Source: an uncultured bacterium
GTDB lineage: Bacteria; Omnitrophota; Omnitrophia; Omnitrophales; Abzuiibacteriaceae
Length of the DNA stretch: 64,000 bases
Direction: 5' to 3'
NCBI GenBank assembly: GCA_964387845.1
Contig: CAYLXA010000002.1
Location: forward strand, 211,584-275,583
Made by a program: the position numbers and the translations under genes
Shown: piece after piece, positions 35,006 to 57,139 of the stretch
How positions within the stretch are numbered: position 1 is the stretch's first letter
How the letters are laid out: each line of letters starts with the position of its first letter
The notes under the pieces: model-generated
Databases searched by the model: none
What the model was told of the DNA's origin: nothing
What the model saw: the letters and a program-made list of their open reading frames with translations, nothing else

Positions 35006-35206
35006 TTATTTTTTTAATTCGAGATAATTTTTGCCGTTTTCTTGCTTCATCACCACATGACCTTCACGACAGAGCCAGCCTACTGCCATCAAACCTACTT
35101 CTTTTCCTATTGAAACTTTTTGAAGAACATGTTCAAGCTCCAAAGCACCGTGTTCATCGAGCATTTTCCAAATTTCACCGGCTGTGATTCCGATTTCTGT
35201 GATCAT
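35006..35206 (-). CDS. small winged-helix-like protein, paralog family B
   Basis: The 66-aa sequence is MITEIGITAGEIWKMLDEHGALE...LMAVGWLCREGHVV. It belongs to the same family as 44026-44343 and 56918-57139. Confidence 0.55.
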   Translation of the reverse strand: MITEIGITAGEIWKMLDEHGALELEHVLQKVSIGKEVGLMAVGWLCREGHVVMKQENGKNYLELKK

Positions 35207-35214
35207 GTTCTCAC

Positions 35215-35601
35215 TTAACCACCTTCACAATACTTCCTGTGATCGTCCTTTCTCAAAAGCCGCTCATCCCAAAGCCAAATGAGCGCCAGAAAACCAAGCG
35301 ACCAACCGCCGATTTGAGATGGCACTTGATGAAAAATGGCGGCAACTACGAAACTGCTTACCAAAAGAATAAGTAAAGTCGGCAAGAGATTTCGATGGCA
35401 CAAAAACGACATGAAGCTTCTCAAGAGAAAAACGGATAGAGAAACCAGCATCACGATTCGCAATATCTTTTCGCTTGCCATCCAACCGAGTCCAATTGCG
35501 CTAAGCGAAGCGACTAAAAAAGGCAGCGCAAAGAAGCACAACCCGGCGCACATCAGACTCAAGGGACTTGCAAAGTTACATTTTTTCATCGATGCGCTCA
35601 A
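35215..35601 (-). CDS. small Cys-containing membrane protein (MerT-like, tentative)
   Basis: It has three or four TM helices, an MCAGLC motif in TM1 and a C-terminal KYCEGG. Confidence 0.35.
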   Translation of the reverse strand: MSASMKKCNFASPLSLMCAGLCFFALPFLVASLSAIGLGWMASEKILRIVMLVSLSVFLLRSFMSFLCHRNLLPTLLILLVSSFVVAAIFHQVPSQIGGWSLGFLALIWLWDERLLRKDDHRKYCEGG

Positions 35602-35631
35602 ATGTTATAAATTACCGGGTGCGAGAAATGT

Positions 35632-36615
35632 TTACGTTGCCAAAATCGGTAACAGTTTCAAACGAAATGGGTTTAACAACTTCTTCTCTGTAAACGCTTG
35701 CCGAAAGGGCGTCATCACAAGCTGCCCTTTTATTTTTCCGACAGCAACTTTCGTTTTCCCATGAATCATCTGCTCCGCAGCAAAAGCTCCCAATTCGGTT
35801 GCGAGAATTCTGTCCTGCGCTGTCGGTGATCCGCCCCGCTGCAGATGCCCCAAAACAACAACCCGATACTCATTGCCGCTCATTCTCTTAAGTTTTTCAG
35901 CGACTTGAAATGCGCCTCCCTCTTTCTCCCCTTCCGCAATAACAAGGATGCTGCTTGTTTTTCCTTTTTTCCTTGATAAACACAGCCGGCCACACACTTC
36001 CTTCAGCACAGTTTTGATTTCCGGCGTCAACACCTCTTCGGCTCCGCCCGCAATTCCCACATCGAGCGCAATAAACCCTGCTTCTCGGCCCATGACCTCA
36101 ACGAGAAAAAAACGTTCGTGTGACTCTGCCGTGTCACGAATCTTATCAATCGCATCCAAAGCAGTGTTGACTGCTGTGTCGTAGCCAATTGTCGAATCTG
36201 TTCCATACAAATCGTTATCGATGGTCCCCGGAATTCCAATGATTTTGCCTTTCCATATTTTAGAAAGATCAAGTGCTCCGCGATACGTTCCATTTCCACC
36301 AATCACAAGCAGACCGTCAATTTCCCTTTGCTCTAAATTAAATTTTGCTTGTTTTAAACCCTTGAGTGTTTCAAACTCTTTGCAACGCGAAGTTTTGATA
36401 ATTGTTCCACCTCTTTGAATAATATTAGAAACCGAACGAGAGCCAAGTTCGATAAACTCATTCTTAATTAACCCCTGATAACCTCTTAAAACACCGCAGA
36501 CGTTAAGACCTGAGTGGGTTGCAATACGTACGACAGCCCGTATGGCTGCGTTCATTCCGGGCGCGTCTCCGCCGCTTGTGAGCACTGCTATTCTTTTAAG
36601 CTTTTCTTTTGGCAT
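35632..36615 (-). CDS. 6-phosphofructokinase (second copy)
   Basis: IAVLTSGGDAPGMNAAIRAV is a PFK signature, over 327 aa. Confidence 0.8.
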   Translation of the reverse strand: MPKEKLKRIAVLTSGGDAPGMNAAIRAVVRIATHSGLNVCGVLRGYQGLIKNEFIELGSRSVSNIIQRGGTIIKTSRCKEFETLKGLKQAKFNLEQREIDGLLVIGGNGTYRGALDLSKIWKGKIIGIPGTIDNDLYGTDSTIGYDTAVNTALDAIDKIRDTAESHERFFLVEVMGREAGFIALDVGIAGGAEEVLTPEIKTVLKEVCGRLCLSRKKGKTSSILVIAEGEKEGGAFQVAEKLKRMSGNEYRVVVLGHLQRGGSPTAQDRILATELGAFAAEQMIHGKTKVAVGKIKGQLVMTPFRQAFTEKKLLNPFRLKLLPILAT

Positions 36616-36641
36616 AATCTGACGCTCTCAATCAATCGAAT

Positions 36642-36863
36642 TCACCGAAGCATTGGGCACATGCTCTTCCAGTGCAGTAACGGGCAACCATAAAACAGAA
36701 AAAACAAAGCGACGCCTAGAAGCAAAACGACCGTCCAAAGCAGAACATGCTTGTTTCGTCTTTGAATGTTGCCCACAACACTTCGGAAAAGTGATTGCAG
36801 TGCGAGCCGAAGTTCTAGGTTTGCCTCCTCTATGCTCTCACCCAAATTTCTCTGATTCTCCAT
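36642..36863 (-). CDS. small membrane protein, hypothetical
   Basis: The 73-aa ORF has one TM helix and is tightly packed within an operon. Confidence 0.25.
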   Translation of the reverse strand: MENQRNLGESIEEANLELRLALQSLFRSVVGNIQRRNKHVLLWTVVLLLGVALFFLFYGCPLLHWKSMCPMLR

Positions 36864-36888
36864 GACGCACCTCCCATTTTAACTTATC

Positions 36889-37248: not shown

Positions 37249-37312
37249 CTTTGCCTCCAGCCGTTCAGACCAATTTATATTTCTGCTCCGATACATTATA
37301 AATTTACAACAT

Positions 37313-37651
37313 TCATACATGATGACATGAGCATTCCTTGCCATTGCATTTGCAGGGTTTTGGTGCGTGTTCGATAAGACTTGACTTCAAATTCTCTGCA
37401 ACGGTTTCGGTGCCCTTTAAAGATTCTGCGAGCACGGAAAGGCTTGTCGCTTGAGTCCCAAGTTTTCTGCCCGTATTTTGGATGTGTTCAAGTAATGCAA
37501 GCTTCGCGCACTCATCGCACGTTGGAAGCTGTCCCAAAGCTTCTTCAAAGCGTTGGGCTGCTTTGACTATATTCTCAAGCGCGGAGCGCAATTCATGCAA
37601 ACCTATCCGCTTCCAAATTTGTTCTGACGATGAGAAAAGATCTTCTGACAT
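37313..37651 (-). CDS. cytoplasmic protein with a C-terminal Cys/His cluster
   Basis: The 112-aa protein ends in PKPCKCNGKECSCHHV. Confidence 0.4.
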   Translation of the reverse strand: MSEDLFSSSEQIWKRIGLHELRSALENIVKAAQRFEEALGQLPTCDECAKLALLEHIQNTGRKLGTQATSLSVLAESLKGTETVAENLKSSLIEHAPKPCKCNGKECSCHHV

Positions 37652-37948
37652 TTAAAACACCTCCATCACACAATTGACTGTCCCAAAAGGATTTGGAACG
37701 CATTCCTCCGGAAGTTGATCGCTCTGCCAGACTCCGTCCGCAAGAAACCGGTATTCATACCGGCCGGGAGTGAGCTCAATGGTTACTTTCCATGTCCCAT
37801 CTTCTTCTTTTTTGAGCGGATTTTTTGTCAGATCCCAATTGTTGAATGTGCCCGCAATTTGAACTTGTTTTGCTTCAGGGGCGTAGAATTCAAATGATGT
37901 TTTTCTCTTCCGAGCTTTTCTTTCTTTGCTTACGTTTTTTGTTTCCAT
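37652..37948 (-). CDS. stand-alone CBM48 / AMPK-beta glycogen-binding-like domain protein
   Basis: FEFYAPEAKQVQIAGTFNNWD...GTWKVTIELTPGRYEYRFLADGVW matches the E-set/CBM48 pattern. Confidence 0.5.
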   Translation of the reverse strand: METKNVSKERKARKRKTSFEFYAPEAKQVQIAGTFNNWDLTKNPLKKEEDGTWKVTIELTPGRYEYRFLADGVWQSDQLPEECVPNPFGTVNCVMEVF

Positions 37949-37974
37949 TTTCGACCTCCTCGTTTTGTGAAATC

Positions 37975-40900
37975 TTAACTTACAATCCAAGCTGCTTTTC
38001 CTTCCTTCATTTCAAATTTCCATTTCCAAATAGCATAGACCACGGGATAAACCAAGAGTTCCAAGATGAACGACGTGAAAAGTCCTCCGATCATGGGAGT
38101 TGCGATCCGCTTCATCACGTCAGAACCTGCGCCGCTCGCCCACATGATGGGAATGAGGCCCATAAAAGCAGCCATCACTGTCATCATTTTTGGCCGGACA
38201 CGTTTTACAGCGCCATGAATAATTGCTTCTTCCAAATCTTCCTCTGTTTTCATTTTTCCTTTTTCAATGGCATCATGATAAGAAAGATCTAGAAAGAGAA
38301 GCATGAAGACACCCGTCTCCGCGTCCAGACCCATTAAAGCAATCATGCCGACCCAAACGGCGATTGAAACATTGTAGCCCAAAATCCAAAGCAGCCACAC
38401 GGCGCCAATTAAAGAAAATGGAACCGCGAGAAGCACAATGCCTGTTTTGACCGCGGATCGCGTATTCATATAAAGAAGAATACAAATCAAGAAGAGGGTG
38501 AGCGGAAGCACGACTTTTAAGCGCTCTTTCACACGGATCATATTTTCATATTGACCGCTCCAGAGAAGCGCATAACCTGGCTGAAGTTTAAGCTCCTTGG
38601 CCACAATCTTTTTTGCTTCTTCAACGTAAGTTCCAATGTCCCGTCCGGCCATATCCACATAAACATAACCAGCCAGAAGGCCGTTTTCATTTCGGATCAT
38701 CGCAGGACCTGTCACCATGCGAATATCTGCAAGCTGCGTGATGGGAATGTGCTGACCTGCCATCGTTGGAACAAGCACGCGTTTTAATTTCTCAATGTCG
38801 TCTCTCAGTTCTCGGGGATAACGAACATTCACAGGATAACGTTCTCTGCCTTCAATGGTCGTCGTAATGTTTTCACCACCAATGGCGGACATAATCACCA
38901 TCTGAACGTCAGCGATTGAAAGACCATAGCGGGCAATCTCATCACGTTTTATATCGAAATCAATAAAATAACCACCTGCCACACGTTCAGCGTAAATACT
39001 TCGAGTGCCCGGAACATCTTTTAAAATCATCTCAAGATGAGTCCCTATTTTTTCAATTTCATTAATGTCTGATCCTAAGACTTTAATTCCGATCGGCGTC
39101 CTGACACCTGTTGTCAACATATCAATCCTGTTTTTAATGGGCATTGTCCACGCGTTCGTAGTTCCGGGAAGCTTAAGCGCTTGATCCATTTCATTAATGA
39201 GATCTTCATGGGAAATCCGTTCCGGCCAAATATATTCAAATGGCCATTTGAACCATTCGGGCATCCATTTGGAATACCAACGGGTCTTCTTTCGCCATTC
39301 ACCGTGTGGTTTCAGCGTCACCACCGTTTCCCCCATGGAAAATGGAGCTGGATCTGTCGAACTCTCGATACGGCCAGATTTTCCGAAAACGCGCTCAACT
39401 TCTGGGAACGATTTTAGAATCTGATCTTGTTTCTTAAGAAGCTTCTGCGCGCTTGCCACAGAAATGCCAGGCAATGTCGTCGGCATATAAAGAAGAGAGC
39501 CTTCCCATAAAGGCGGCATGAATTCAGATCCTAAACGCAAATAGATTGGAATCGTCGTCAACACAAGGAAAAGTGCTGTCACAATCGTCGTCTTGCGATG
39601 TTTTAGAACGAAACGACAAACGGGTTCATAGATCCTGAAAAGAACTTTGCTGACGGGATGTTTTTCTTCCGGATAATAAGTCCCGACCGCAACCGTCGTG
39701 GCAATTTTGGAAGCCCATTTTGATTTAAATTTAAAAGGTTCCATTCTGGTAAAAAGCATTCGCAGAGCTGGATCTAACGTAATGGCCAAGATAGCGGCAA
39801 CCGCCATCGCCAAATTCTTTGCCCAAGCAAGCGGTTTAAAAAGACGGCCTTCTTGATCAACCAAGGTGAAAATGGGCATGAAAGAAACGGCTATTACAAG
39901 AAGCGAGAAAAAAACAGCAGGGCCAACTTCTTTTAAAGCTTGAAGCCGGATCGCATGATAATCGCCTTTTCGCCCACCCTCGATCCATTGTTCCAGTCGC
40001 TTGTACGCATTTTCGACTTCCACAATAGCACCGTCTACCAAGACGCCGATGGAAATCGCTATTCCTGAAAGTGACATAATGTTCGAGGTTAAATTCATCC
40101 GGTGAAGAAAAATAAAAGAAAGCAAAACTGAAATTGGAATGGTGACAATTGGAATAACCGCGGATGGGAAATGCCAGAGAAATATCAGAATGACGATGCT
40201 GACAATGATCATTTCCTCAAACAGTTGGTGTTTTAAAGTATCGATGGCATGTTCGATTAATTCAGAGCGGTCATAGGTCACGACCAGTTCAACGCCGACA
40301 GGAAGAGAAGGCCCCAAATCTTTGATCTTTGCTTTGACACGGTTAATCACGTTGAGCGCATTTTCTCCAGAGCGCATGATAACGGTGCCTGTGACCGTAT
40401 CGCCTTGGCCATCAAGATCAGCGAGACCGCGCCGGATTTCAGGCCCAAGCGAAACCGTCCCGATGTGCTTCACTAAGACGGGCGTTCCTTTGGAATCCAC
40501 CGCGACCACAATTTGTTCAAAATCCTCAACTGATTTTCCGTAACCGCGCCCTCTCACCATATATTCCGCGCCCGAAAATTCAATTAATCGCCCGCCCACT
40601 TCTTGATTTCCGCTGCGAATGGCTTCCACCACTTTCGTCAGCGGAATGTTATAGGCGAGGAGTTTGTTGGGATCTACGGTTATTTGATATTGCTTGACGA
40701 AACCGCCGAGTGTTGCGACTTCCGCTACACCGGAAACACTTTGAAGGTGGTAACGAAGATACCAATCTTGAAAGGATCTTAATTCTTGTAGATTGTGCTT
40801 GCCGGTTTTATCAACCAATGCGTATTGAAAAACCCACCCGACACCAGTCGCGTCAGGGCCAAGTTCAGTTTGGACGCCTTGCGGAAGGCGCGGGATGATT

Positions 40901-41295
40901 TTGCTTAAATATTCAAGTGTGCGGCTTCTCGCCCAATATAGATCCGTACCGTCCTTAAAAATGACGTACACATAGGAAAACCCAAAATCTGAAAATCCCC
41001 GAATGGCTTTGACATTTGGCGCACCCAACATCGAAGTGACAATGGGGTAAGTCACTTGGTCTTCAATAATGTCCGGGCTTCTGTCCCATCTTGAATAAAT
41101 AATGACTTGCGTATCAGAAAGATCAGGAATCGCATCGAGTGGAATACTTTTAATCGACCACACAGCTGCGGCAATCGCAACAGCAGTGAGAATAAAAATA
41201 AGGAATTTGTTATGCGCTGAGAATTCGATGATTTTTTCGACAAAACCGCCCTGCCTCAGCTTGTGCGATTGAAGCCCTTCTTTTTCATCCGCCAT
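37975..41295 (-). CDS. heavy-metal efflux RND permease, CusA/CzcA family
   Basis: The 1106-aa protein has 12 TM helices and large periplasmic loops, with an HME-RND family N-terminus. Confidence 0.9.
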   Translation of the reverse strand: MADEKEGLQSHKLRQGGFVEKIIEFSAHNKFLIFILTAVAIAAAVWSIKSIPLDAIPDLSDTQVIIYSRWDRSPDIIEDQVTYPIVTSMLGAPNVKAIRGFSDFGFSYVYVIFKDGTDLYWARSRTLEYLSKIIPRLPQGVQTELGPDATGVGWVFQYALVDKTGKHNLQELRSFQDWYLRYHLQSVSGVAEVATLGGFVKQYQITVDPNKLLAYNIPLTKVVEAIRSGNQEVGGRLIEFSGAEYMVRGRGYGKSVEDFEQIVVAVDSKGTPVLVKHIGTVSLGPEIRRGLADLDGQGDTVTGTVIMRSGENALNVINRVKAKIKDLGPSLPVGVELVVTYDRSELIEHAIDTLKHQLFEEMIIVSIVILIFLWHFPSAVIPIVTIPISVLLSFIFLHRMNLTSNIMSLSGIAISIGVLVDGAIVEVENAYKRLEQWIEGGRKGDYHAIRLQALKEVGPAVFFSLLVIAVSFMPIFTLVDQEGRLFKPLAWAKNLAMAVAAILAITLDPALRMLFTRMEPFKFKSKWASKIATTVAVGTYYPEEKHPVSKVLFRIYEPVCRFVLKHRKTTIVTALFLVLTTIPIYLRLGSEFMPPLWEGSLLYMPTTLPGISVASAQKLLKKQDQILKSFPEVERVFGKSGRIESSTDPAPFSMGETVVTLKPHGEWRKKTRWYSKWMPEWFKWPFEYIWPERISHEDLINEMDQALKLPGTTNAWTMPIKNRIDMLTTGVRTPIGIKVLGSDINEIEKIGTHLEMILKDVPGTRSIYAERVAGGYFIDFDIKRDEIARYGLSIADVQMVIMSAIGGENITTTIEGRERYPVNVRYPRELRDDIEKLKRVLVPTMAGQHIPITQLADIRMVTGPAMIRNENGLLAGYVYVDMAGRDIGTYVEEAKKIVAKELKLQPGYALLWSGQYENMIRVKERLKVVLPLTLFLICILLYMNTRSAVKTGIVLLAVPFSLIGAVWLLWILGYNVSIAVWVGMIALMGLDAETGVFMLLFLDLSYHDAIEKGKMKTEEDLEEAIIHGAVKRVRPKMMTVMAAFMGLIPIMWASGAGSDVMKRIATPMIGGLFTSFILELLVYPVVYAIWKWKFEMKEGKAAWIVS

Positions 41296-42562
41296 GTTGA
41301 TGCCCTCCGCCTCCGCCCATTCCCTGAAGCGCCGCTTTTAAACGGCTTTCCGAGTCAATCAGAAAATTGCCGCTTGTCACAACGATCTCACCTTCCTCAA
41401 GCCCGCTTTTGACTTGATAACCATTTTCCGTTTTGACTCCCAAGCTTACTTCGCGGGGCTCAAAGACACCTCCTTCTTTCATCACGAAAACAACGTTTTT
41501 CTCGCCCGTTGAAAATACCGCTTCCGTGGGAACCGTCACGCTTTCTCCCAAATTAATTTTGAGCATCGCGTTCGCGTACATTTCCGGTTTGAGCAAACCT
41601 TCCGGATTCTCAAGAATCGCCCGAACGCGCACAGACCGCGTCATGGGATCGAGAACAGAATCAATCGAACGGATAACTCCTTGAACCTTTTTATCCGGAA
41701 CAGACGGAATTTCAATTTCAAGCGTATCGCCAACTTTCACAAGGGGGATTTCATATTCATAAATCGGCGCATAAAGCCACACGCGGCCCCCCACATCGGA
41801 ATAAAGAAGAGAGCGATCCGGTTTTCCCAAAGTTTCTATTTCGCCGACAAGATCGCTGCTTAATCCGAGAAGTCGCAGCTTAATTTTGGCGGAATCGACA
41901 AGCTTCGCGGCTTGTTCTTTAATTTCCGGAACTGCGTTTTCGGCTTTTTTGAGAGCGCTAATCGCTTGTAAATACTCTTCTTGTGCTTGATAAAGCTCAG
42001 GGTCATAAGCAATGCGGCCTACGGTGCGTATCGTTTTTTCAATAACCATTTTTTTCACCGGCGCCGTCTCAATTCCGATTGCCTGTTGTTTGTCATGCGA
42101 TACAGTCACTTTGGCGTAGCCCTCGGGCGCCATTTGTTTAATCAGGATTCCTAAATCTTCACCGCAGTGAGGGCATTTGCCCGTTTTCGCAATTTCTTCC
42201 GTTATGGCAAACATGCACTTGCCCATTTTGCATTTATGAAGAAGGCAAATCTCTCCGGGTTTCATATTCATTAACTCTTTTATGGTTAATTCTTTAACAG
42301 CATCTGCGCCAGTGGGCGTAGCTTGTTGATGAGCTTCGTGAGAAGATTGTTCGCTGGTCTCTTCTTTTTTCACGAGCGACATATTGCAGATTGGGCAGCT
42401 GCCCGGGCGGTCGGACGTGTAAGTCGGATGCATGGGACAGTAATAAAGAGCCTTTTTTGATGATACTTTTTGACCCGCACCTTGGATAATTCCAGATTGG
42501 TAAGCCCAAATTCCTCCAAAGACGACAATAAAGATTAAAGCAATTGGAATAATTCTTTTCAT
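41285..42562 (-). CDS. RND efflux periplasmic adaptor (CusB-like) with N-terminal CPMHP-type metal-binding module
   Basis: The N-terminus reads YYCPMHPTYTSDRPGSCPICNMSL, with a second KCPHCGEDL motif, ahead of the HlyD-like barrel and lipoyl regions. Confidence 0.8.
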   Translation of the reverse strand: MKRIIPIALIFIVVFGGIWAYQSGIIQGAGQKVSSKKALYYCPMHPTYTSDRPGSCPICNMSLVKKEETSEQSSHEAHQQATPTGADAVKELTIKELMNMKPGEICLLHKCKMGKCMFAITEEIAKTGKCPHCGEDLGILIKQMAPEGYAKVTVSHDKQQAIGIETAPVKKMVIEKTIRTVGRIAYDPELYQAQEEYLQAISALKKAENAVPEIKEQAAKLVDSAKIKLRLLGLSSDLVGEIETLGKPDRSLLYSDVGGRVWLYAPIYEYEIPLVKVGDTLEIEIPSVPDKKVQGVIRSIDSVLDPMTRSVRVRAILENPEGLLKPEMYANAMLKINLGESVTVPTEAVFSTGEKNVVFVMKEGGVFEPREVSLGVKTENGYQVKSGLEEGEIVVTSGNFLIDSESRLKAALQGMGGGGGHQHGG

Positions 42563-43935
42563 TTTTTCTCCTCGCTCTGAATTAAATCAATACCCGTAGC
42601 GCGTACTAAATCCGCAAAACTACTGACTGCTTCCGTATAAAAACGAATCTGCGTGAGTTTTGCGTTCAAATAAACGCGCTCACTGTCTAATAGATTCAAA
42701 AAATCCATTTTGCCAGCCTCATATCCTGCTTGATCGGCAGAGAGAGCAAGCTTGGCTTGAGGGATGACAGCGGTTTCATAAAGGTCTGAAATGTCGCTTG
42801 CTGCTTTGTATCTGTGATAAGCGTCTTTGACTTCATAAAAGGTTGTGTTCTTAGCTTCCAGGAGTTTCGCTTGACTTGCTTCAAACATCTTTTGTGCTTC
42901 CTGAATTTCAGGAATAATCCGGTTCTGCCAAATAGGAAGGTTAAACCGTATGGGAAACATCCAGCTATCCTTGCCGTCGTCAGGATCCTCGGTCATTCCG
43001 GAACCGACCTGCGTGTATTCAAATCCGATATTGATATCCGGAATATTGGCAAGCTTGGCAAGCGTCTTCGCCTGTCCGCTTCGCGCCACCATGGCTTCCA
43101 TTTCTTTGATTTCTTGGCGATTTCGAACCGCCAAATTTACAAGCTCTACCAAAGATTGTTTTAAAACCGGCTTTTCGGGAGTGTTCGGAGAACCTAACGA
43201 AAGCATCGGATCACGGTCTAAAAGAGCATTGATCATTGCAGTGGTCGTTTCCCGTTCCCGTTTGAGCATAAATAATTTCTCCAATGTCATTGAGACTTCG
43301 GCTTGAGCTTTCGCCACATCGCGCTGAGCGCCTGACAGATTGGAATAGCGCGCCTCGGCCACGCTTTCAAATTTCTTGAGAAGCTCCTTGACCTCCTCAA
43401 TGGTTTGAAGCGATTGATCGACATAATAAAGTTCGCTGTAAAGCTTAGTGAGTTGATTGATCACATCGCGCTGCACGGCAAGATACTTTTGATATTTTGC
43501 ACGTGCCTCTTCATTTGCCATTTTTCCTTTCTTAACCAGCTTCAAGGGAAAGGGCATCTCCTGCGAAACCATAACCCTGTTTTCTTGAGGCCCGACTCGC
43601 GTCTCGACCATTTCCCCCATCAGGTCAAAACCTGCCATCGGATCCGGAAGCGCAGAATCGATCCAAATTCTTTTTTTGGCGGCAAGCCATTCGGCATGAG
43701 CGGCCACAATTCCGGGATTTTTTTCTCTGGCCATTTTGATCAAATCAGGCAGAAGTAAAACCAATTCCGCCGGTGCTTTTTCTGTCGGAGGAATCTCTGG
43801 CGCTTGAGTTTCTTGGGCATGGGTGGCTGCGGCGAAGTTCATCGCTAAGATGAAGAACAGAAAGTATTTAAAAAAAATCCGCCTCGATCTTTTCTCACAA
43901 CCCGCTTTTTTTAGATTAACCATAAATGATTCCAC
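42559..43935 (-). CDS. TolC-family outer-membrane efflux protein
   Basis: It has a signal peptide and two OEP repeats, and it overlaps the adaptor start. Confidence 0.8.
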   Translation of the reverse strand: MESFMVNLKKAGCEKRSRRIFFKYFLFFILAMNFAAATHAQETQAPEIPPTEKAPAELVLLLPDLIKMAREKNPGIVAAHAEWLAAKKRIWIDSALPDPMAGFDLMGEMVETRVGPQENRVMVSQEMPFPLKLVKKGKMANEEARAKYQKYLAVQRDVINQLTKLYSELYYVDQSLQTIEEVKELLKKFESVAEARYSNLSGAQRDVAKAQAEVSMTLEKLFMLKRERETTTAMINALLDRDPMLSLGSPNTPEKPVLKQSLVELVNLAVRNRQEIKEMEAMVARSGQAKTLAKLANIPDINIGFEYTQVGSGMTEDPDDGKDSWMFPIRFNLPIWQNRIIPEIQEAQKMFEASQAKLLEAKNTTFYEVKDAYHRYKAASDISDLYETAVIPQAKLALSADQAGYEAGKMDFLNLLDSERVYLNAKLTQIRFYTEAVSSFADLVRATGIDLIQSEEKK

Positions 43936-44025: not shown

Positions 44026-44343
44026 TCACTCTTTGCTCCTCTCACTGAGCATGACAAACAATTTCCCATTCGTCCTTAGCATCAGCACATGTCCTTCCCG
44101 GCAGAGCCATCCCAAAGCCATAAGAGTAATTACCCGATTCTGTGACAGGCGGCTTGTCAGCAATGAAAACTCAAGCGGGTCTTCCTCATCCAGGACAGTC
44201 CAGATTTCACCGGCAGCAATACCGATCTTTGTAATTGTGGAAGTATCTGAAAAAATCCTTACGTTCATTTCTTGAAGAACGCTTGACAATTCTGATTTTG
44301 TGGCAACAAAAGTTTCCGTTATCATATTCGCCTCCTGAAGCAA
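44026..44343 (-). CDS. small winged-helix-like protein, paralog family B (start uncertain)
   Basis: ITKIGIAAGEIWTVLDEEDPLEF...LMALGWLCREGHVL places it in family B. It has a longer N-terminus, and the start could be M7 or M26. Confidence 0.5.
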   Translation of the reverse strand: MLQEANMITETFVATKSELSSVLQEMNVRIFSDTSTITKIGIAAGEIWTVLDEEDPLEFSLLTSRLSQNRVITLMALGWLCREGHVLMLRTNGKLFVMLSERSKE

Positions 44344-44805
44344 TTACGCTTCCATGCCGGCCATGTTCATTTGTTTCATCGATTCCTGAAGTTTGGCGTG
44401 CAGCTGTGCTAAGTATTTCTCGGTTTGTTCGGACGTCAGTTCTTTTCTCACTTCGAGAATGTGTGCGGCGACTCCTTTTTCCAAGGAAATCTGTAGCGCG
44501 CCAATTTCCTCAACCTTTTGATCAATCGTCTTCGCATTCGCTTTTGGGTCCCCCAACATTCGCAGTAGTTCAAAACGCCCTTGGCATACTTTCATGCAAA
44601 TTTGATCCGCCGATTTCTGGAAGGTGGAATCCAATTTCTTCAAAGTTTCCGTCTGCTTCGCACTCAGTCCCAAGTTGGAATACCCTTCCCCTTGAGAGCG
44701 ATAACCCATCGGGCACATGGTCATGTTGCACATTTTTTGACTTGCCCAAAATCCAAAAAGCGTCACCATGGCAATCAACACTGCAAAGAAAAGCAGTCTC
44801 CTCAT
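44344..44805 (-). CDS. periplasmic LTXXQ-motif (CpxP/Spy/ZraP-like) heavy-metal sensor/chaperone
   Basis: A signal peptide is followed by a Met/Cys cluster (CNMTMCPMGY) and two LTxxQ-type motifs (LSAKQTETL, LTSEQTEKY). An ATGA overlap links it to the anti-sigma gene. Confidence 0.6.
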   Translation of the reverse strand: MRRLLFFAVLIAMVTLFGFWASQKMCNMTMCPMGYRSQGEGYSNLGLSAKQTETLKKLDSTFQKSADQICMKVCQGRFELLRMLGDPKANAKTIDQKVEEIGALQISLEKGVAAHILEVRKELTSEQTEKYLAQLHAKLQESMKQMNMAGMEA

Positions 44806-45299
44806 GACAAATTCCTTTCTTCGATCATAGTTAAATACGTTCCAGCGATCGAAGGAGATGGAATTCCTTTGTATTCTTGAAATCCGGAAAGGGTCTGAAT
44901 GGCTGAAGCAGGCCTTTGATTGAGACTCCAAATTTGGCCGCCGGAAGCCGAAAACCATCCGCCTGCGCTTCCAATAAGAAAAGCGATTGAAAGCACGGCA
45001 AACGCTTGAGATAAATTTGGAATTGGAATCGTCCATTCAAGATTCTTGAGGAGCTTTGAAAACCATGGCTCCTTGGAACGCGCGTAAACCTTACGCCAGA
45101 AAGCAGCATCAAAATCAGGGGAAGGCTCAATTGTTGCAATTGAAGTCCGGAGAACGTTCTGAAGCGTTTTTGCGACTTCAAATTCCTTTTGACAGGAAAA
45201 ACAAGCCTTTACATGCAATTCAAAGTCCCTTCCAACGGACTCTCGCAAGTTTCCATCCAGCCACCGTTCCATATTTTCTTGAATCAATTGACATTTCAT
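44802..45299 (-). CDS. zf-HC2 anti-sigma factor (membrane-spanning)
   Basis: The N-terminal zinc-finger motif reads HVKACFSCQKEF, with a single TM helix and a periplasmic tail. It lies immediately downstream of the ECF sigma region. Confidence 0.6.
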   Translation of the reverse strand: MKCQLIQENMERWLDGNLRESVGRDFELHVKACFSCQKEFEVAKTLQNVLRTSIATIEPSPDFDAAFWRKVYARSKEPWFSKLLKNLEWTIPIPNLSQAFAVLSIAFLIGSAGGWFSASGGQIWSLNQRPASAIQTLSGFQEYKGIPSPSIAGTYLTMIEERNLS

Positions 45300-45443
45300 T
45301 TTTTTATTCCTCTTATCAGTTCAACGCATGAAAGAACTGTCTCCCCCAAACTTTTTTCAAAAAATTCACGGTTGACCTTCCAAAAACAAAGACCCTGAAT
45401 CATTTCGTCAACCAATTCAAGGCCTTTTCCTTTTTGATTTCAA

Positions 45444-45851
45444 TTACCGCCTCGGCCTTGTGAAAGCAACGACTGCTTTCGTGCCGGGCGCCGGATTGGG
45501 ATTCAAAAAGGGGCGGCTTTTATCCACGTATTTTTCAAGTCCCTCGCTATTCCAGTTGCGGGATCTGGTAAATTTAACAATATCCTTGGTACCGCTAATC
45601 CCCTCAAACGGCGGTGCGGGTTCTATTCGCATGCGGGACGGCTCCAAGGTGGGCTTTGGCATTTTTTGAAGTGCGAGGTAATCATGATACTTCATCCATG
45701 CCACAACGGGTTTTGTCCCGTAGTATTCTTTCTGAAAATCTGCGAACGTCTTTGTGGGGGTTTGCTCGACTGCTGAATCAAGTGCGTAAGCGGATACAGC
45801 CAATATCCCCAAACTGATTAAAAAGCTTGAGTATTTTATAAGGTGTTTCAT
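45444..45851 (-). CDS. secreted protein, paralog family A (GTKD[IV]VAF repeats)
   Basis: The block FADFQKEYYGTKPVVAWMKYHDYLALQKMPKPTLEPSRMR is followed by GTKDIVKFTR and GTKAVVAFTR repeats. Confidence 0.5.
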   Translation of the reverse strand: MKHLIKYSSFLISLGILAVSAYALDSAVEQTPTKTFADFQKEYYGTKPVVAWMKYHDYLALQKMPKPTLEPSRMRIEPAPPFEGISGTKDIVKFTRSRNWNSEGLEKYVDKSRPFLNPNPAPGTKAVVAFTRPRR

Positions 45852-45930
45852 CTTCCCCTCCTCCTCGTTTTATGTTCCTACTTAGTAAACGCTTGAGGAG
45901 AGAAAAACCCCCTTACTTTTTTAGGATTAA

Positions 45931-46551
45931 TCAGGATAGGTATTTTGCCAGTCTTTTCCTTAACTCGCCCTTAGCGTGGTAAATCCGTCTTTCAACTGCT
46001 TTTGTGGTGATCCCCAAAATTTGAGCAATTTCTCCATAAGGTAGTTCTTCAAACTGATAAAGGAGGAGCGGCGATCTTATATGCTCTGGCAATTGATAAA
46101 TTTCATTTTGAAGGAGCGCTTTAAGCTCATCGCGATCAAGAGCTTCTTTCGGAGAAGGCGATCTTAAGTTGGGCAAGTTCTCAAGAAAAGTTTGCTCATC
46201 ACCGCTTTCCTTCTGGATTTTCTGATCCAGCGAGATCGGAAAGAATTTCCTTCTGCGAATTAAATCGAGCGACGCGTTGACCGTGATGCGATAAAGAAGG
46301 GTGTAGAACTTGGCGCGCGGATCGTAACGGATTTTCTTCTCGTAGATCCGAATAAAAACTTCCTGAGCGATATCTTCGGCGCTTTGTGCTTCTTTCAAAA
46401 ACCGGAAAGCCAGGTTAATTACTTTCTTTTTATATTTTTCAAAAATACTCTCAAACGCAGACTCTTTTCCTTGAAGAAAGTCATTGATGAGAAGCCAGTC
46501 TTCATCAGCATGTTGAGTGGGCAGCGCATTCTGTATCGGTGTCTGCATCAT
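45931..46551 (-). CDS. ECF-subfamily RNA polymerase sigma-70 factor
   Basis: It has region 2 (DIAQEVFIRIYEK) and the region 4 HTH (LPYGEIAQILGITTKAVERRIYHAKGELRK). Confidence 0.85.
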   Translation of the reverse strand: MMQTPIQNALPTQHADEDWLLINDFLQGKESAFESIFEKYKKKVINLAFRFLKEAQSAEDIAQEVFIRIYEKKIRYDPRAKFYTLLYRITVNASLDLIRRRKFFPISLDQKIQKESGDEQTFLENLPNLRSPSPKEALDRDELKALLQNEIYQLPEHIRSPLLLYQFEELPYGEIAQILGITTKAVERRIYHAKGELRKRLAKYLS

Positions 46552-51975: not shown

Positions 51976-52054
51976 AAATTTTTTAGTGTTGAAATAATAA
52001 CCGAAAAAAGTTTAAGACAGACTGATTGCGTTCAGGATTGCGGAAAAGTGAGGA

Positions 52055-52495
52055 TCAAATCCGTAAGACGGAAATGCTGATGAAAAGAGGAATGGGAGAA
52101 AAACGAGAACCCGGAGGACCGGTTCCGCTAAGCGTTGGTAGTTTTGTGTGAGGTGAAGAAATGTTAATTACAAAAGTCGCATCTTGCAAAAACTTGCTTG
52201 TGACTTTTTCGGACGAACTGAGCGAAGATAGATATTGAAGAGAGTTTTGATTGACTAAATTGCAAATAATTTGAGGATGGGAGCATTTTTCATGACTGTG
52301 CGGCGTTCCTGATTCATTTCCATGCCGGTGACAATCGTCATCTTGCCCGCCATTTCTTGCGGTGCCATGTTCATGGGAATCGGTTTGAGCAATCGCGTTG
52401 CAGCAACAGAACGAAACTGCGATCGGGGTAATGAAGGAAAGTAAAATCACTACCACAAAAACCTTTTGCGACAGATTCCGTTTCATCCGATTCAT
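52055..52495 (-). CDS. secreted His/Cys-rich protein, hypothetical
   Basis: A signal peptide is followed by CCCNAIAQTDSHEHG...DDDCHRHGNESGTPHSHEKCSHP. Confidence 0.35.
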   Translation of the reverse strand: MNRMKRNLSQKVFVVVILLSFITPIAVSFCCCNAIAQTDSHEHGTARNGGQDDDCHRHGNESGTPHSHEKCSHPQIICNLVNQNSLQYLSSLSSSEKVTSKFLQDATFVINISSPHTKLPTLSGTGPPGSRFSPIPLFISISVLRI

Positions 52496-52571
52496 GGCGT
52501 TAATTTACTCCTTGATACTTGAAAAAGCAAGTGATTTTCACATCCGAAACACTTTCGATTTAAAAAGCGCA

Positions 52572-52904: not shown

Positions 52905-52940
52905 TAATCAATCTCCTTTCCCCAGAATAAGAATTGTTTT

Positions 52941-54833
52941 TTATCGCAACAGCCGTAAACCGTTTACTACTGCCAAAATTTCAGAGGATTCATGGATAAA
53001 GACAGCAAGAGCAACAGTCATTACTCCCATTAAAGCTGATGGAACAAGAACCGCAAGAAGCGCTAAAGAGAAAACAATATTTTGAAAGCTTATTTTTCGC
53101 GCTTTTTTTCCGAGTCTGATTGCAAAAGTAAGTTTTTCCAAATCGTCGGCCATGAGGGCTACGTCAGCCGCTTCAATGGCAGCATCCGTTCCCGCGGTTC
53201 CCATCGCTATACCAACTGTTGCTTTTGCCAAAGCGGGAGCGTCATTAACGCCATCTCCAACCATCGCCACGTTCACGTACGCTTCTTTAAGCTCTTCAAT
53301 GGCTTTGATTTTATCTTCCGGTTTTAAATCGGCTTTGACTTCATCGATTCGGAGCTCATCGGCAATAGCTTTTGCGGTAAGCTGATTATCCCCCGTCAGC
53401 ATAGCTATTTTGATTCCCATTTCTCTTAGCTCATTGACCGCTTTTTTCGATTCGAGTCGTATCTGATCACGAATCGCAATAAGACCGACAAGATTTTCTT
53501 TCATTCCGACAAGAATGACCGTATTTCCTTGATTTCTTAATCTTTGAATGTCGGCAATTTCTGCAACGTCAATTCCTAATTCCTTAAAGAGTTCTACTTT
53601 ACCAATATAAACCGTTCGGCCTTGAACATTTGCTTTTACGCCTGAACCCACAAGAGCACTAAAATCACTTGCTTCAAGATAAGTCACTTTCGATTCAATT
53701 GCTTTTTGAACGATGGCTTCCGCCAATGGATGCTCTGAAAATCGCTCAATACTATAAGCAAGTTCAAGCACTCTTTTTTCAGACGTTCTAAAAGACACGA
53801 TTTCCGTTACCTCAGGTTTTCCTTTGGTAAGCGTTCCAGTTTTGTCGAAAGCAATGGCTTTGACTTTGCCTAAATTCTCAAGGTGCATACCACCCTTGAT
53901 TAAAACACCGGATTTCCCCGCTTTTCCGATTCCAGCTGCAATGGCAACTGGTGTGGACATAATGAGCGCACATGGAGCAGCAGCAACCAGTAGAACAACG
54001 GCTCGAACAGCCCATGAAGCGAAGGGCAATCCGAATAGAAACGGAACAATTAATAAAACGAGCGATGCCACAAGTACTAAAGGCGTGTAGAACTTGCCAA
54101 AGCGGTCAATGAAAAGTTGCGCTTTTCCTTTTTGTTCCTGAGCTTCCTCAACTAAATGAACAATTTTAGAAAGCGTATTGTTTTCAAAAGTCGCCGTTAC
54201 TTTAATTTCAAGCACACCTGTTTGATTCATCGTTGCCGCAAAAACTTTCATTCCTTCTTTTTTTTCAACCGGCATGGATTCACCTGTAACGGCTGCTTCA
54301 TTGAGGCTTGAGCTGCCTCTGACGATGAGGCCATCGGTTGGAAGAGATTCCCCCGGACGGACGATAAAAATGTCATCTAATTTTAAGTCTTGGGCGGAGA
54401 TAATTGTTTCTTCGCCATTTCTTAAAACGCGGGCTTCTTTGGGAGCTAAATCAAGAAGCTTACGAATCGAAGCTCTCGTCTTGGCAAACGTATATTCTTC
54501 GAGCCCTTCCGCTGCGCCGTAGAGAAAAACGAGAAAAGCGGCTTCATCCCACATGCCCAAAATGACGGAACCGACCGTTGCCGCCATCATCAGGATTTCA
54601 ATCCCGATTTCTCGTTCTTTGATTAATTCTTCAAGGCCTTCGCGAATCCAATGATAACCGCCGATAAAGATCGCGGCAATGTAAAGGAGGATTTCAATAA
54701 GAGGTGGCGTGAACCGAAGATGCGCTGAAGCGAAGGATAGAGTCGTCAAGCCACCGGCAATAAGGGCATTTCGCATGACCGGATGCGAATACCATTTTCC
54801 ATCAAATGCTTCTTTATGATCATTGCCCGGCAT
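52941..54833 (-). CDS. heavy-metal translocating P-type ATPase, P1B-4-like (no N-terminal metal-binding domain)
   Basis: DKTGTLT and GDGVNDAPAL are present. The TM metal site reads APC, and an HESSEI motif lies in the last TM. At 630 aa it has no HMA domain. Confidence 0.85.
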   Translation of the reverse strand: MPGNDHKEAFDGKWYSHPVMRNALIAGGLTTLSFASAHLRFTPPLIEILLYIAAIFIGGYHWIREGLEELIKEREIGIEILMMAATVGSVILGMWDEAAFLVFLYGAAEGLEEYTFAKTRASIRKLLDLAPKEARVLRNGEETIISAQDLKLDDIFIVRPGESLPTDGLIVRGSSSLNEAAVTGESMPVEKKEGMKVFAATMNQTGVLEIKVTATFENNTLSKIVHLVEEAQEQKGKAQLFIDRFGKFYTPLVLVASLVLLIVPFLFGLPFASWAVRAVVLLVAAAPCALIMSTPVAIAAGIGKAGKSGVLIKGGMHLENLGKVKAIAFDKTGTLTKGKPEVTEIVSFRTSEKRVLELAYSIERFSEHPLAEAIVQKAIESKVTYLEASDFSALVGSGVKANVQGRTVYIGKVELFKELGIDVAEIADIQRLRNQGNTVILVGMKENLVGLIAIRDQIRLESKKAVNELREMGIKIAMLTGDNQLTAKAIADELRIDEVKADLKPEDKIKAIEELKEAYVNVAMVGDGVNDAPALAKATVGIAMGTAGTDAAIEAADVALMADDLEKLTFAIRLGKKARKISFQNIVFSLALLAVLVPSALMGVMTVALAVFIHESSEILAVVNGLRLLR

Positions 54834-54840
54834 GTGTGCT

Positions 54841-55239
54841 TCATACCCTCATTTTTTTCACCGCTTCATCCATCATATCGAAAAGTAAGTCTTCCACTTC
54901 TTCGGCCACGCGCTTAAGACTAGGTTTGCCAAATTGCTCAATCAATACGGTTGGCCGAATGGTCGCCAGTTTTACTTTGGTGCCTTCTTGATAAACGGAA
55001 ATGCGACATGGTAACGCGGTGGAAATAGCCATATCGCCTTCCAAAACCTTTTTGGCCTGATCGGGATTACACACCTCGTAAATCCGGCATTCGTTGGAGA
55101 AAGAAACTCCTTTTTTCTCTAACGTTTCTTTCAGATTATGAATCGCCAATATTCCAAATTTTCGATTCTTGACGGCTTCTTCCAGGTCTTTACCCACTTG
55201 ATCGATTGTTTTTTGATCTGTTTCAACAATTTTTAACAT
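54841..55239 (-). CDS. DUF302-domain protein
   Basis: The 132-aa ORF has the overall DUF302 pattern and sits between the DsbA-like genes and the ATPase. Confidence 0.5.
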   Translation of the reverse strand: MLKIVETDQKTIDQVGKDLEEAVKNRKFGILAIHNLKETLEKKGVSFSNECRIYEVCNPDQAKKVLEGDMAISTALPCRISVYQEGTKVKLATIRPTVLIEQFGKPSLKRVAEEVEDLLFDMMDEAVKKMRV

Positions 55240-55258
55240 AACGATCCTCCTTCGTAAT

Positions 55259-56293
55259 CTACTCTTTGCCTAGTTTCTGATCTACCATTTGTTTTAACGC
55301 GGGATAGGGCTGAGCGCCCGAAAACAAGGTTCCGTTGATAAAGGTAGTCGGCGTTCCGCGCGCACCAACCGATTGCGCATAAGCTATATCGTCATCGATT
55401 TGTTTGTCAAGCTGTGGGTCTTTCATGCAGGCATCAAACGCGTCCATTTTAAGACCGGCGGTCTCCGCATATTTTCGGATACTGGCATCGTCCAGCGCCT
55501 TCTGATTGGCAAAGAATTGATCCCTCAATTCCCAAAATTTCCCTTGCTTTTGTGCGCAAATTCCGGCGCGTGCCGTGGGTTTTGCATGAGTGTGGAAAGG
55601 AAGTGGATTGTTTCTAAAAACATGTTTCACGTCGTTGGGATATTCTTTGACGAGTTGATCCAAAGTGTCCTTAAACCGTCCGCAAAACGGGCATTCGAAA
55701 TCAGAAAATTCAACGACCGTTACTTTTGCATTCTCCGGGCCGCGAAAAGGAGATCCTGCCACATTGATTTCTACTTTAGGTTCCTCTAAAAATATTTGGA
55801 CGGGGTGTTTTTGCTTGATTTCATCCAGAATTTTGGTTTTTTCTTTGGCTGTTTTTGCCTGGACAAGCATTTGGCGGATTTGTTCTTTTACCTCAGCCAA
55901 AGGCTTCCCCTGAAATTGAGCTTGGTTGGCATCGTAATAGACTTCAATGGCGTCATCACTGACGACAGAAACAGAGGTATTGCTTAGTTCTTTCTTAAAA
56001 TCCTCAACCGATTTCTTTTGGTCTTTAGCTCCCAGTTCGATCAATTTGTTTTGAATCATATCATCCAAACGGCGTTTCTTAATCGTGTAAATTTGAGACG
56101 CCATCGGCATCAAATCATTTTTAGCAGCTTCATCTAATTCAAACATGGTAATTTTTTGCCCATTTATTTCTGCCGCAATCGGTTGCTCGTCTTTCTTGGC
56201 TAACAGATTACTCACGCTTAACACCATGAATAATATTGAGAAATATGTGAACACTATTATTTTTTTCATATCAATTCCTCCGTTTAGTTTCAT
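55259..56293 (-). CDS. DsbA-family thiol:disulfide oxidoreductase with N-terminal extension
   Basis: The thioredoxin-fold CxxC motif reads VVEFSDFECPFCGRF, and a signal/anchor is present. Confidence 0.7.
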   Translation of the reverse strand: MKLNGGIDMKKIIVFTYFSILFMVLSVSNLLAKKDEQPIAAEINGQKITMFELDEAAKNDLMPMASQIYTIKKRRLDDMIQNKLIELGAKDQKKSVEDFKKELSNTSVSVVSDDAIEVYYDANQAQFQGKPLAEVKEQIRQMLVQAKTAKEKTKILDEIKQKHPVQIFLEEPKVEINVAGSPFRGPENAKVTVVEFSDFECPFCGRFKDTLDQLVKEYPNDVKHVFRNNPLPFHTHAKPTARAGICAQKQGKFWELRDQFFANQKALDDASIRKYAETAGLKMDAFDACMKDPQLDKQIDDDIAYAQSVGARGTPTTFINGTLFSGAQPYPALKQMVDQKLGKE

Positions 56294-56909
56294 TTAATTT
56301 CCTTTGAATCACAGACAATCCATCTTGAGAAAGTTGGTTTGAGCCTACTAACCGCTCACCGTTAATAAAGAAAGTTGGCGTTGAATGCACCTGAAGCCCC
56401 GCCCCCATTTGCTTATCACGCTCAATGGCTGTATTAACCGTAGAATCCGAAAGGCAAGCAGCAAATTGGTCGAGATCCACACCGATCTCTTTGGCAGACT
56501 TAAAGAAAAGCGTTGTGGCGTTTGCATCCTTAGACCATTTTTCTTGATTGTCAAATAACCAATCATGGAATTCCCAAAATTTATTTTGCTTTAGGGCACA
56601 TTCGCTCGCTCTGGCAGCGTCAAAAGCCATGGCGTGCATTTGAAGCGGAAAGTGGTGAAACTGCAGCTGAATCAAACCAGGGAACTGATTAAAAAGCGCT
56701 TTAAGCGGCGATTGACTCTTAGCACATGAAGGGCACTGAAAATCGCTGAACTCGATGATGGTAATAGGCGCATTCTTAGAACCTTTGATTTTACCCGGAA
56801 TATTGGCCTCTGAATCTCTTTTAACATTTCGCGCAATCGTGACACCAATCACGAGGACGCTTAGCAAAATTGCTGATACAACTAGTCTTTTGAGTTTTGT
56901 TTCGCGCAT
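56271..56909 (-). CDS. DsbA-family thiol:disulfide oxidoreductase
   Basis: IIEFSDFQCPSCAKS carries the CxxC motif, and a signal anchor is present. Confidence 0.7.
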   Translation of the reverse strand: MRETKLKRLVVSAILLSVLVIGVTIARNVKRDSEANIPGKIKGSKNAPITIIEFSDFQCPSCAKSQSPLKALFNQFPGLIQLQFHHFPLQMHAMAFDAARASECALKQNKFWEFHDWLFDNQEKWSKDANATTLFFKSAKEIGVDLDQFAACLSDSTVNTAIERDKQMGAGLQVHSTPTFFINGERLVGSNQLSQDGLSVIQRKLNETKRRN

Positions 56910-56917
56910 CGATGAAC

Positions 56918-57139
56918 CTATTCTGAAAATTCTTTCTTGTTTGATCTTAGTTCAACAAACGTTTTTCCATTTTGCTGGCTAATCACCACATGACCTTCCC
57001 GGCAAAACCAGCCGAGAGCCATTAACGTCAATTCTTCGCTATAGGGTGTTTGCTTGACTAATTTTGAGAATTCCAGACACCCTTTTTCATCTAAAAGCTT
57101 CCAAATATCACCTGCCGCAAAACCGATTTCAGTAATCAT
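56918..57139 (-). CDS. small winged-helix-like protein, paralog family B
   Basis: MITEIGFAAGDIWKLLDEKGCLEF...LMALGWFCREGHVV places it in family B. Its start overlaps the stop of the upstream RND gene. Confidence 0.55.
   Translation of the reverse strand: MITEIGFAAGDIWKLLDEKGCLEFSKLVKQTPYSEELTLMALGWFCREGHVVISQQNGKTFVELRSNKKEFSE

Follow-up and report, generated by a model that had tools for sequence, protein, structure and literature searches.

The 64,000-nucleotide stretch analysed here (the window; positions 211,584 to 275,583 of contig CAYLXA010000002.1, from an uncultured member of the Omnitrophota) carries a metal island from ~31 kb to 63.9 kb in which almost all genes lie on the minus strand and gaps are short or negative. 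Embedded in this island are three genes encoding small proteins of the Pfam family PF10771 (DUF2582), which an earlier note on the same DNA had described as winged-helix-like paralogs within metal-resistance operons. Their positions, lengths in amino acids (aa), and family matches are as follows:

35006..35206, minus strand: DUF2582 copy #1, 66 aa, with Cys46/His50; PF10771 E=6e-14, 52.4 bits
44026..44325, minus strand: DUF2582 copy #2, 99 aa from its ATG; PF10771 E=6e-13, 49.1 bits
56918..57139, minus strand: DUF2582 copy #3, 73 aa, with Cys46/His50; PF10771 E=2e-15, 57.2 bits

Three DUF2582 paralogs and their fold

The three copies are pairwise 50-56% identical and share 29 invariant alignment columns, including ITxIG..AG.IW and LMAxGW.CREGHV; when each was searched against the whole window by tblastn, the other two were recovered at E=1e-18 to 1e-25, and a fourth copy was not found in the 64 kb (no further match below E=0.4). 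Judged by sequence, this similarity is far beyond chance and identifies the genes as real paralogs. The earlier note had thus placed the three open reading frames correctly and quoted their common motif correctly, although the length of 66-81 aa that it gave does not hold, the products being 66, 99, and 73 aa long. The longest open reading frame of copy #2 (44026-44343, TTG start) would encode 105 aa, with the Pfam match on residues 39-98; however, the ATG at 44325 is preceded by AGGAGG and yields the 99-aa form, which is also that of the public protein P0003, and is likely the true start. Copy #2 additionally carries a 33-residue N-terminal insertion between its paralog-like beginning, ‘MITE’, and ‘ITKIG’.

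The immediate surroundings of the three genes were also as the earlier note had read them. The start of copy #3 overlaps, by ATGA, the stop of czcA2, which encodes a 1023-aa ACR_tran pump of AcrB/CzcA type; copy #2 is flanked by a Metal_resist/LTXXQ protein gene and an OEP (TolC-like) gene; and copy #1, whose closest orthologs, P0004 and P0005, are 83-86% identical, begins 8 nt past a MerC-like gene and is followed, 13 nt beyond its end, by the first of the YHS-type genes, encoding a 98-aa YHS-like protein. DUF2582 proteins of this type have isoelectric points of 5.2-5.9 and a net charge of -1 to -3, and the window proteins, with an acidic N-terminus (‘MITEIG’) and neither a hydrophobic signal peptide nor a membrane segment, are predicted to be cytoplasmic in character.

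All three copies matched PF10771 (‘Winged helix-turn-helix domain DUF2582’) over profile positions 5-64 of 65 and at 49-57 bits, against a gathering cut-off of 24.2; NCBIfam has no model matching the three proteins. They are therefore new members of a known domain-of-unknown-function family, one that is named in Pfam and has solved structures, where the earlier note had been unable to assign a characterised family. The relatives of copy #3 in the PDB are 2L02 (BT2368, E=2e-7) and 2L01 (BVU3908, E=7e-5), both determined by nuclear magnetic resonance (NMR) from Bacteroides and both deposited as ‘uncharacterized protein’; structures of DUF2582 proteins have existed since 2010. An AlphaFold model of copy #3 (single chain, 50-sequence alignment; mean predicted local distance difference test score, pLDDT, 90.9) has the order H1 (2-19), b1, H2 (24-30), H3 (35-48), b2, b3, and hence the predicted fold is a canonical minimal winged helix; together with the Pfam search, this model bears out the guess made from the letters. 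Foldseek ranked 2L01 and 2L02 first among the matches to the model, followed by ArsR-family proteins (HlyU, SrnR, SqrR), AspA, MarR, and Zalpha, with TubR, CzrA, and BigR also among the matches. In the model, Cys46 is placed three residues short of where helix 3 ends, His50 opens strand b2, and helix 3 is mainly hydrophobic or acidic, with a single basic residue.

The wider family was sampled by an unbiased HMMER scan of 1.84 billion representatives, which gave 1678 clusters at E <= 1e-3 and from which 191 domains were taken; a profile search of 5.8 billion proteins gave 333 matches, all PF10771. In all three window copies, helix 1 carries the motif IG..AG.[IV]W..L and helix 3 ends in GWL.RE; both motifs are near-invariant across the 191 domains. 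Some family members (P0121, P0142, P0167, P0188, P0189) consist of 2-4 tandem DUF2582 domains or are 280-360-aa proteins with two domains and a long coiled-coil-like spacer. Fusions were considered as a clue to function and proved uninformative, comprising only tandem DUF2582 domains, coiled-coil spacers, and one weak PilX_N match. A literature search did not find the name DUF2582, found PF10771 mentioned rarely, returned only unrelated papers for the PDB and locus names, and yielded no reported function for any PF10771 member. According to the title of one structural paper (Eletsky et al., 2012, J Struct Funct Genomics 13:1-7), the winged-helix motif is what joins family members into homodimers.

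Residue 46 and genomic setting

In the window proteins and their closest relatives, Cys replaces Ala at position 46 (GWLCREGH), four residues before a His50 that is invariant in the subfamily, although the apparent invariance in the subfamily alignment is inflated by the 5-residue word-index search used to collect it. By sequence, the window copies belong to an Omnitrophota-specific subfamily with the signature MITEIG..AG.IW..LD ... LM.LGWL.REGHV. Among the 191 domains of the family-wide sample, position 46 is Ala in 145 and Cys in only 3; at position 50, 107 have Lys and 37 have His. That a CxxxH site might characterise the whole family was considered and ruled out: Cys46 is clade-specific, His50 is specific to the Omnitrophota subfamily, and Lys is the family norm.

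The motif itself was used as bait in a scan of one genome per species, which gave 80 loci, almost all labelled Candidatus Omnitrophota and the remainder unclassified or from ‘Planctomycetia’ metagenome-assembled genomes. When these were searched with 33 island proteins of the window, a metal gene within 10 kb was found only at the four loci of the closest relatives (L003-L006). Residue 46 was Ala at 75 loci, Ser at one, and Cys at four, and the four Cys loci were the four metal loci; at the 76 non-Cys loci, no metal gene was found within 10 kb. Instead, 59 Ala46 loci and the Ser46 locus shared a UvrA-TPR-ExbB-ExbD setting, in which neighbouring genes, clustered de novo and then annotated with Pfam, kept a conserved same-strand order at 50-54 loci: UvrA, an 820-aa TPR protein, ExbB/TolQ, ExbD, a variable gene, a zinc-ribbon protein, and DUF2582, followed by a pilin-like protein, CutA1, or Memo-AMMECR1. 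The zinc-ribbon protein is 80-90 aa long and membrane-anchored, and an ATGA overlap joins its gene to that of DUF2582 at 29 of 47 loci, a hint that the two proteins form a complex. The Ala46 form is a core gene of this Omnitrophota operon, which was seen across L008-L082 (for example, L009 2936-11912 and L008 1435-9289).

The genome loci were then pooled with 66 metagenome loci, likewise collected with the motif as bait, and filtered for unique proteins with at least 3 kb of flank; metal genes (CzcA, CzcB, P1B-ATPase, multicopper oxidase (MCO), HMBD, DUF302, DUF2231) were sought within 6 kb by tblastn with the window’s own proteins (E <= 1e-5, at least 40% coverage). They were present beside 15 of 16 unique Cys46 copies vs 4 of 92 non-Cys copies (Fisher p = 7e-14, a value that overstates independence because shared ancestry and synteny are ignored), and 70 of the 92 non-Cys copies lay in the ExbB/UvrA setting. 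All three window copies combine a GWLCREGH-type motif with one or more metal genes within 6 kb. Seven further Cys-type proteins, examined on their contigs through precomputed Pfam neighbours, were all in metal clusters (7/7), where two orders recurred, CzcA-(c16)-DUF2582-P1B ATPase and DUF2231-(Cys-tail 112 aa)-DUF2582. The first is represented by L084, L087, and L088 (OEP-MFP-RND-(150 aa, c16)-DUF2582-P-type ATPase), and the second by L086 and L089 (OEP-multicopper oxidase-HMBD-DUF2231-(112 aa)-DUF2582); in L083, OEP-MFP-ACR_tran and DUF2582 precede HMBD, DsbA-like proteins, DUF302, a P-type ATPase, and a CDF transporter, and L085 is a three-copy locus that, like the window, also contains PFK and a CBM48 protein. 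The c16 protein (L087 5523-5984) is a 150-aa periplasmic protein ending in C..CKRAEYACIC.H and is encoded between CzcA and DUF2582.

Neighbour-joining analysis placed 59 tips in a main Cys clade, 53 of them with Cys, and spread the window paralogs over three subclades, such that each has closer relatives elsewhere than within the window. Copy #3 groups with the P0007 group and the P0006/L090 group (73-77% identical), and copy #2 with P0057, another N-extended form, whose 1.2-kb contig gives no readable neighbourhood; close relatives of copies #1 and #3 occupy the matching type of operon. A second Cys46 lineage (P0087, L103, L107, L108), which may be basal to the main clade or of independent origin, keeps the housekeeping residues H14/S41 and is otherwise more like the Ala clade, and two of its members, L103 and L108, adjoin MCO-HMBD-DUF2231 genes. 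Since two lineages that differ at other signature positions both combine Cys46 with metal genes, residue 46 is the one position that consistently follows context. The Cys46 clade is found almost only inside Omnitrophota metal-resistance clusters, whose components are CzcCBA pumps, P1B ATPases lacking HMA, multicopper oxidase with HMBD and DUF2231 genes, and a Cnr-like sensor module, and this clade, its ancestry from the ExbBD-operon gene, and the correlation of residue with context appear to be undescribed.

The link to metal operons proposed in the earlier note therefore stands for the window and its close relatives of the Cys46 clade, and fails for the family, in which 70 of 92 non-Cys copies sit in the UvrA-TPR-ExbB-ExbD operon. 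Family members also occur on Bacteroides plasmids, in conjugation or replication settings and at times as paired genes. Because most copies lie in the ExbBD operon without metal genes, and because of these plasmid copies, PF10771 as a whole is not a metal-locus family; such a spread beyond metal loci is what the note had said would refute its proposal of an accessory regulator or metal-responsive adaptor.

The metal island and its possible regulatory DNA

The remaining principal features of the island, in the order of transcription, are as follows:

63189..63920, minus strand: phage-integrase family gene at the island’s upstream edge; PF00589 E=7e-37
57136..62416, minus strand: RND-type efflux genes for heavy metals, OEP3-CzcB2-CzcA2, preceding copy #3; Pfam OEP, HlyD_D23, ACR_tran
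52941..56909, minus strand: two DsbA/Thioredoxin_4 genes, DUF302, and a P1B ATPase of 630 aa that has an APC motif but no HMA domain, downstream of copy #3
44344..46551, minus strand: Cnr-like module upstream of copy #2, comprising an ECF sigma factor (45931-46551), a 135-aa secreted protein, a zf-HC2 anti-sigma factor (44802-45299), and a CnrX/Metal_resist protein (44344-44805)
37975..43935, minus strand: OEP1-CzcB1(HMBD)-CzcA1 efflux genes, which follow copy #2 at a distance of 90 bp; assigned by Pfam and motif
37313..37651, minus strand: helical, cytoplasmic protein of 112 aa that contains CDEC internally and ends in the tail KPCKCNGKECSCHH (KPCKCNGK.CSCHH)
35215..35601, minus strand: MerC-like membrane protein directly upstream of copy #1; PF03203 E=2e-6
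33872..34992, minus strand: YHS-like 98-aa gene and SLOG-cluster4/YHS fusion, downstream of copy #1; Pfam significance for YHS in the fusion only

Transcription would thus run from the integrase through a Cys/His-rich secreted protein and OEP3-CzcB2-CzcA2 to copy #3 and the gene set ending in the P1B ATPase, a set that recurs after Cys-type DUF2582 genes in L083 and L090. Small Cys/His-rich proteins, OEP2, a multicopper oxidase-HMBD fusion, HMBD and DUF2231 proteins, and the ECF sigma module then lead to copy #2. Within that module, the CnrX-like gene really starts at 44805, where it shares ATGA with the stop of the anti-sigma gene; its longest open reading frame (230 aa) is therefore an over-call. 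Both CzcA proteins carry DFG..DGA..VEN together with ACR_tran and are of the divalent-cation pump type. After CzcA1 follow CBM48, the 112-aa protein, PFK, the MerC-like protein, copy #1, and the YHS-type genes, an expanded version of the order in L089, L097, and L098 (Cys-tail protein, DUF2582, c13, g45444-like, and TPR on the opposite strand). The 112-aa CDEC protein had no significant Pfam match, and its orthologs are encoded directly upstream of Cys-type DUF2582 genes in L089 (5629-5982), L097 (9644-9982), and L098 (2065-2403); it is a possible partner of Cys-type DUF2582.

Several other features of the island were noted. The PFK gene and the CBM48/AMPK-beta-like glycogen-binding gene (35632-36615, 37652-37990) lie near DUF2582 copies, and their pairing recurs with pyruvate kinase in L085 (6590-10150)/L091. 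The fusion gene at 33872-34696 joins a SLOG cluster-4 (LOG-like) domain to a C-terminal YHS metal-binding domain; as called, the beta-CASP/RMMBL reading frame at 32479-34014 overlaps it by 143 nt, and the true start of the latter is probably further downstream. Families of small secreted Cys/His-rich proteins without Pfam matches recur in islands (in the window at 62479-62832, 52055-52495, and 31963-32346) and are characterised, for instance, by FCCC and His-rich stretches ending ...PLFL...LRI or by C..CHS.HH. Elsewhere in the window, a 1582-aa reading frame at 23115-27863 had sub-threshold Pfam matches only.

Promoter and terminator scans of the island gave counts at or below shuffled expectation. 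A shared inverted repeat was not found in the ten island intergenic regions of at least 40 bp, nor upstream of five orthologous first genes, an absence that is weak evidence; L089 alone has a private palindrome, with 7-bp arms. In the 356-bp spacer after the integrase (62833-63188), the inverted repeat TCGATTTAT/ATAAATCGA brackets three GGCAATAA units in tandem. The stretch GTAAATTTGTGTTTGCAAT.AGAAAAAACAGGTGCTAAACTT, immediately before the first gene of the efflux operon, is conserved in L090 as well and may be a TTGCAA-17-TAAACT promoter. A ~40-bp direct repeat (28242-28281 / 28425-28465, 183 bp apart) takes in the 3′ terminus of tRNA-Val on the minus strand (28445-28520) and may be a remnant attachment site; no repeat was found to connect tRNA-Val, at 28.4 kb, to the end of the island that bears the integrase.

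Possible roles and known systems

With less than even confidence, we favour the reading that Cys46-type DUF2582 proteins are cytoplasmic, dimeric, metal- or thiol-responsive accessory proteins that use Cys46/His50 and act via partner proteins. Each copy would be a homodimer co-transcribed with its efflux operon and, for copy #3, co-translated with the pump gene. If the dimer forms via the winged-helix motif, the change of Ala to Cys would fall near the two-fold axis and create a putative two-Cys (plus two-His) site, in which Cys46 and His50, probably from both protomers, would offer thiolate and imidazole ligands to the operon’s metal or react to thiol stress; such chemistry would suit Zn, Cd, Co, Ni, or Cu(I), or alternatively a disulfide between subunits. 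The metal-dependent state would then be relayed by protein contact to neighbouring membrane transporters or sensors. Output via partner proteins is favoured over DNA because the proteins are acidic with one basic residue in helix 3, because the ancestral form is ATGA-coupled to a membrane-protein gene and copy #3 to czcA2, and because operon #2 already has a Cnr-type sigma module and no shared operator was found. Additionally, the mid-operon position and the tight or overlapping spacing of the genes, which are co-oriented with efflux genes, argue against simple DNA binding, and FeoC and DsrD provide examples of small operon-embedded winged helices that act on proteins and are not classical repressors.

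The case for this protein-partner model is overall not strong, and several observations weigh against it. Operons of the copy #3 type have no other recognisable DNA-binding regulator, which favours a regulatory role for DUF2582 itself; the structural neighbours include the DNA-binding metal/thiol sensors CzrA, BigR, HlyU, and SqrR; the likeness to FeoC is one of analogy only (hhalign probability 1.2%); and many of the loci behind the residue-context association are syntenic relatives. Moreover, six main-clade members are without Cys (P0025 has Val; P0037, P0051, P0052, and P0055 have Ala; P0046 has Ser) and other non-Cys DUF2582 proteins of A/N (L085 6314) and G/Y (L087 10541) type reside in metal islands; thus, Cys is not obligatory there.

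A classical metalloregulator, a dimer that would bind the operator of its own operon and be released or activated by metal at Cys46/His50, with one cognate repressor per operon as in ArsR/SmtB logic, seems to us possible but somewhat doubtful. In its favour, neither the OEP3-CzcB2-CzcA2-...-ATPase cluster nor the related L084, L087, and L088 hold another protein of DNA-binding fold, each operon type has one paralog subclade, and a conserved Cys beside a His is typical of metal sensors; however, these acidic proteins have but one basic residue in the recognition helix, lack alpha-5 or an extra dimerisation helix, and give no ArsR/MarR Pfam match even at E<=1. Their genes are placed mid- or late-operon, with one translationally coupled to a pump gene, no palindrome was found to be shared among the island intergenic regions or the upstream regions of orthologous operons, operon #2 already possesses its ECF sigma/anti-sigma/CnrX module, and the ancestral form is coupled to a membrane-protein gene. 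In the family’s structural literature, the winged-helix motifs themselves reportedly make a tight dimer, the DNA-contact residues of FadR and TubR are said not to be conserved, and DNA binding is said to have been judged unlikely, which we take as a lead only.

That the proteins are metal-independent scaffolds, generic adaptors for inner-membrane machines (of ExbBD type for the core-genome form, RND and P-type pumps for the island copies) in which Cys46 is a mere clade marker, is distinctly improbable. The ATGA coupling of the ancestral copy to a membrane zinc-ribbon gene within the ExbB-ExbD operon, the island copies without Cys, and the 2-4x tandem arrays and coiled-coil fusions of the wider family, typical of structural proteins, would all be in keeping with it; against it, Cys46 follows metal context in two lineages differing at other signature positions and is otherwise very rare (3/191), and the partners vary by locus (CzcA, MerC-like, CnrX-like, DUF2231, periplasmic c16), so widely as to argue against one structural partner. 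Maintenance of the mobile element, with the copies serving the integrase-bearing island in centromere/partition function like AspA/TubR or in excision control, is barely credible: despite the phage-integrase gene at 63189-63920, the DUF2582 genes, sometimes in pairs, on Bacteroides plasmids, and the presence of AspA and TubR among the Foldseek matches, no copy adjoins the integrase, all are embedded in efflux genes with 8-18 nt gaps or overlaps, and the commonest form belongs to the core genome, within an operon that is not mobile.

DUF2582 now has two sharply defined genomic settings in one phylum, with residue 46 switching accordingly, and this correlation turns an unknown winged helix into a testable metal- or thiol-sensing hypothesis; the Cys46 sub-branch is a candidate for a new metal-responsive accessory protein. 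Should the Cys clade prove to be a sensor or a pump-associated subunit, the control of Omnitrophota efflux operons without a recognisable regulator would be explained, and the few known families of bacterial metal sensors would be joined by one on a minimal scaffold; should it prove to be neither, the gain is one of annotation, the genes to be labelled as PF10771 members rather than regulators. In a bolder version, which we consider unlikely, the change of Ala to Cys beside an invariant His at the symmetric dimer interface of a conserved winged helix would have made a new class of metal-sensing protein, an inter-subunit Cys2His2 or bis-thiolate site built into Omnitrophota HME-RND, P1B-ATPase, and multicopper-oxidase operons, as either a new metalloregulator family or a soluble regulatory subunit or chaperone, dependent on metal, for pumps without cytoplasmic metal-binding domains of their own.

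Among known proteins, those of 2L01 and 2L02 resemble the window copies in length, winged-helix topology, and the IG..AG.[IV]W..L and GWL.RE motifs; they differ at position 46, which is Ala (2L02, GWLAREN) or Leu (2L01), and at 49-50, where the residues are of Lys or Asn type, and Bacteroides family members occur in non-metal settings such as plasmids, whereas the window copies are confined to metal-efflux clusters. The ArsR/SmtB sensors (CzrA, BigR, HlyU, SqrR) are likewise small, dimeric, encoded with resistance genes, and dependent on Cys/His sensing chemistry, features that for the window proteins are in part putative. However, their five-helix architecture (a1-a2-a3-aR-b1-b2-a5) contrasts with the three helices and hairpin of the window model (66-73 vs ~100 aa); no HTH_5 or HTH_20 Pfam match at E<=1 was found for the three copies, which also lack the ELCVCDL and alpha-5 His/Asp motifs, and ArsR/SmtB genes come first in their operons whereas the window DUF2582 genes are mid-operon.

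FeoC (PF09012) is a stand-alone winged helix of ~75 aa with Cys ligands, encoded right after a transporter gene and thought to act on the transporter. Homology to it was rejected, there being no Pfam match and an hhalign probability of 1.2% (E = 0.042) with an E. coli FeoC sequence; moreover, four wing Cys hold an Fe-S cluster in FeoC, whereas the window proteins have a single Cys at the end of helix 3, and no conserved Cys was found in the wing (residues 51-64) of the DUF2582 copies. DsrD, itself a minimal winged helix, MerD, and ArsD are small proteins encoded inside structural operons that modulate an enzyme, pump, or regulator by protein contacts; they are unrelated in sequence to DUF2582 and none is known to be tied to HME-RND pumps, such that the likeness is an analogy only. 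The surroundings of copy #2, with an ECF sigma factor, a zf-HC2 anti-sigma factor, a CnrX-like Metal_resist protein, and an OEP-MFP-RND triplet bearing DFG-DGA-VEN, resemble CnrYXH/CzcCBA, and no DUF2582 component is known from the described Cnr and Czc systems.

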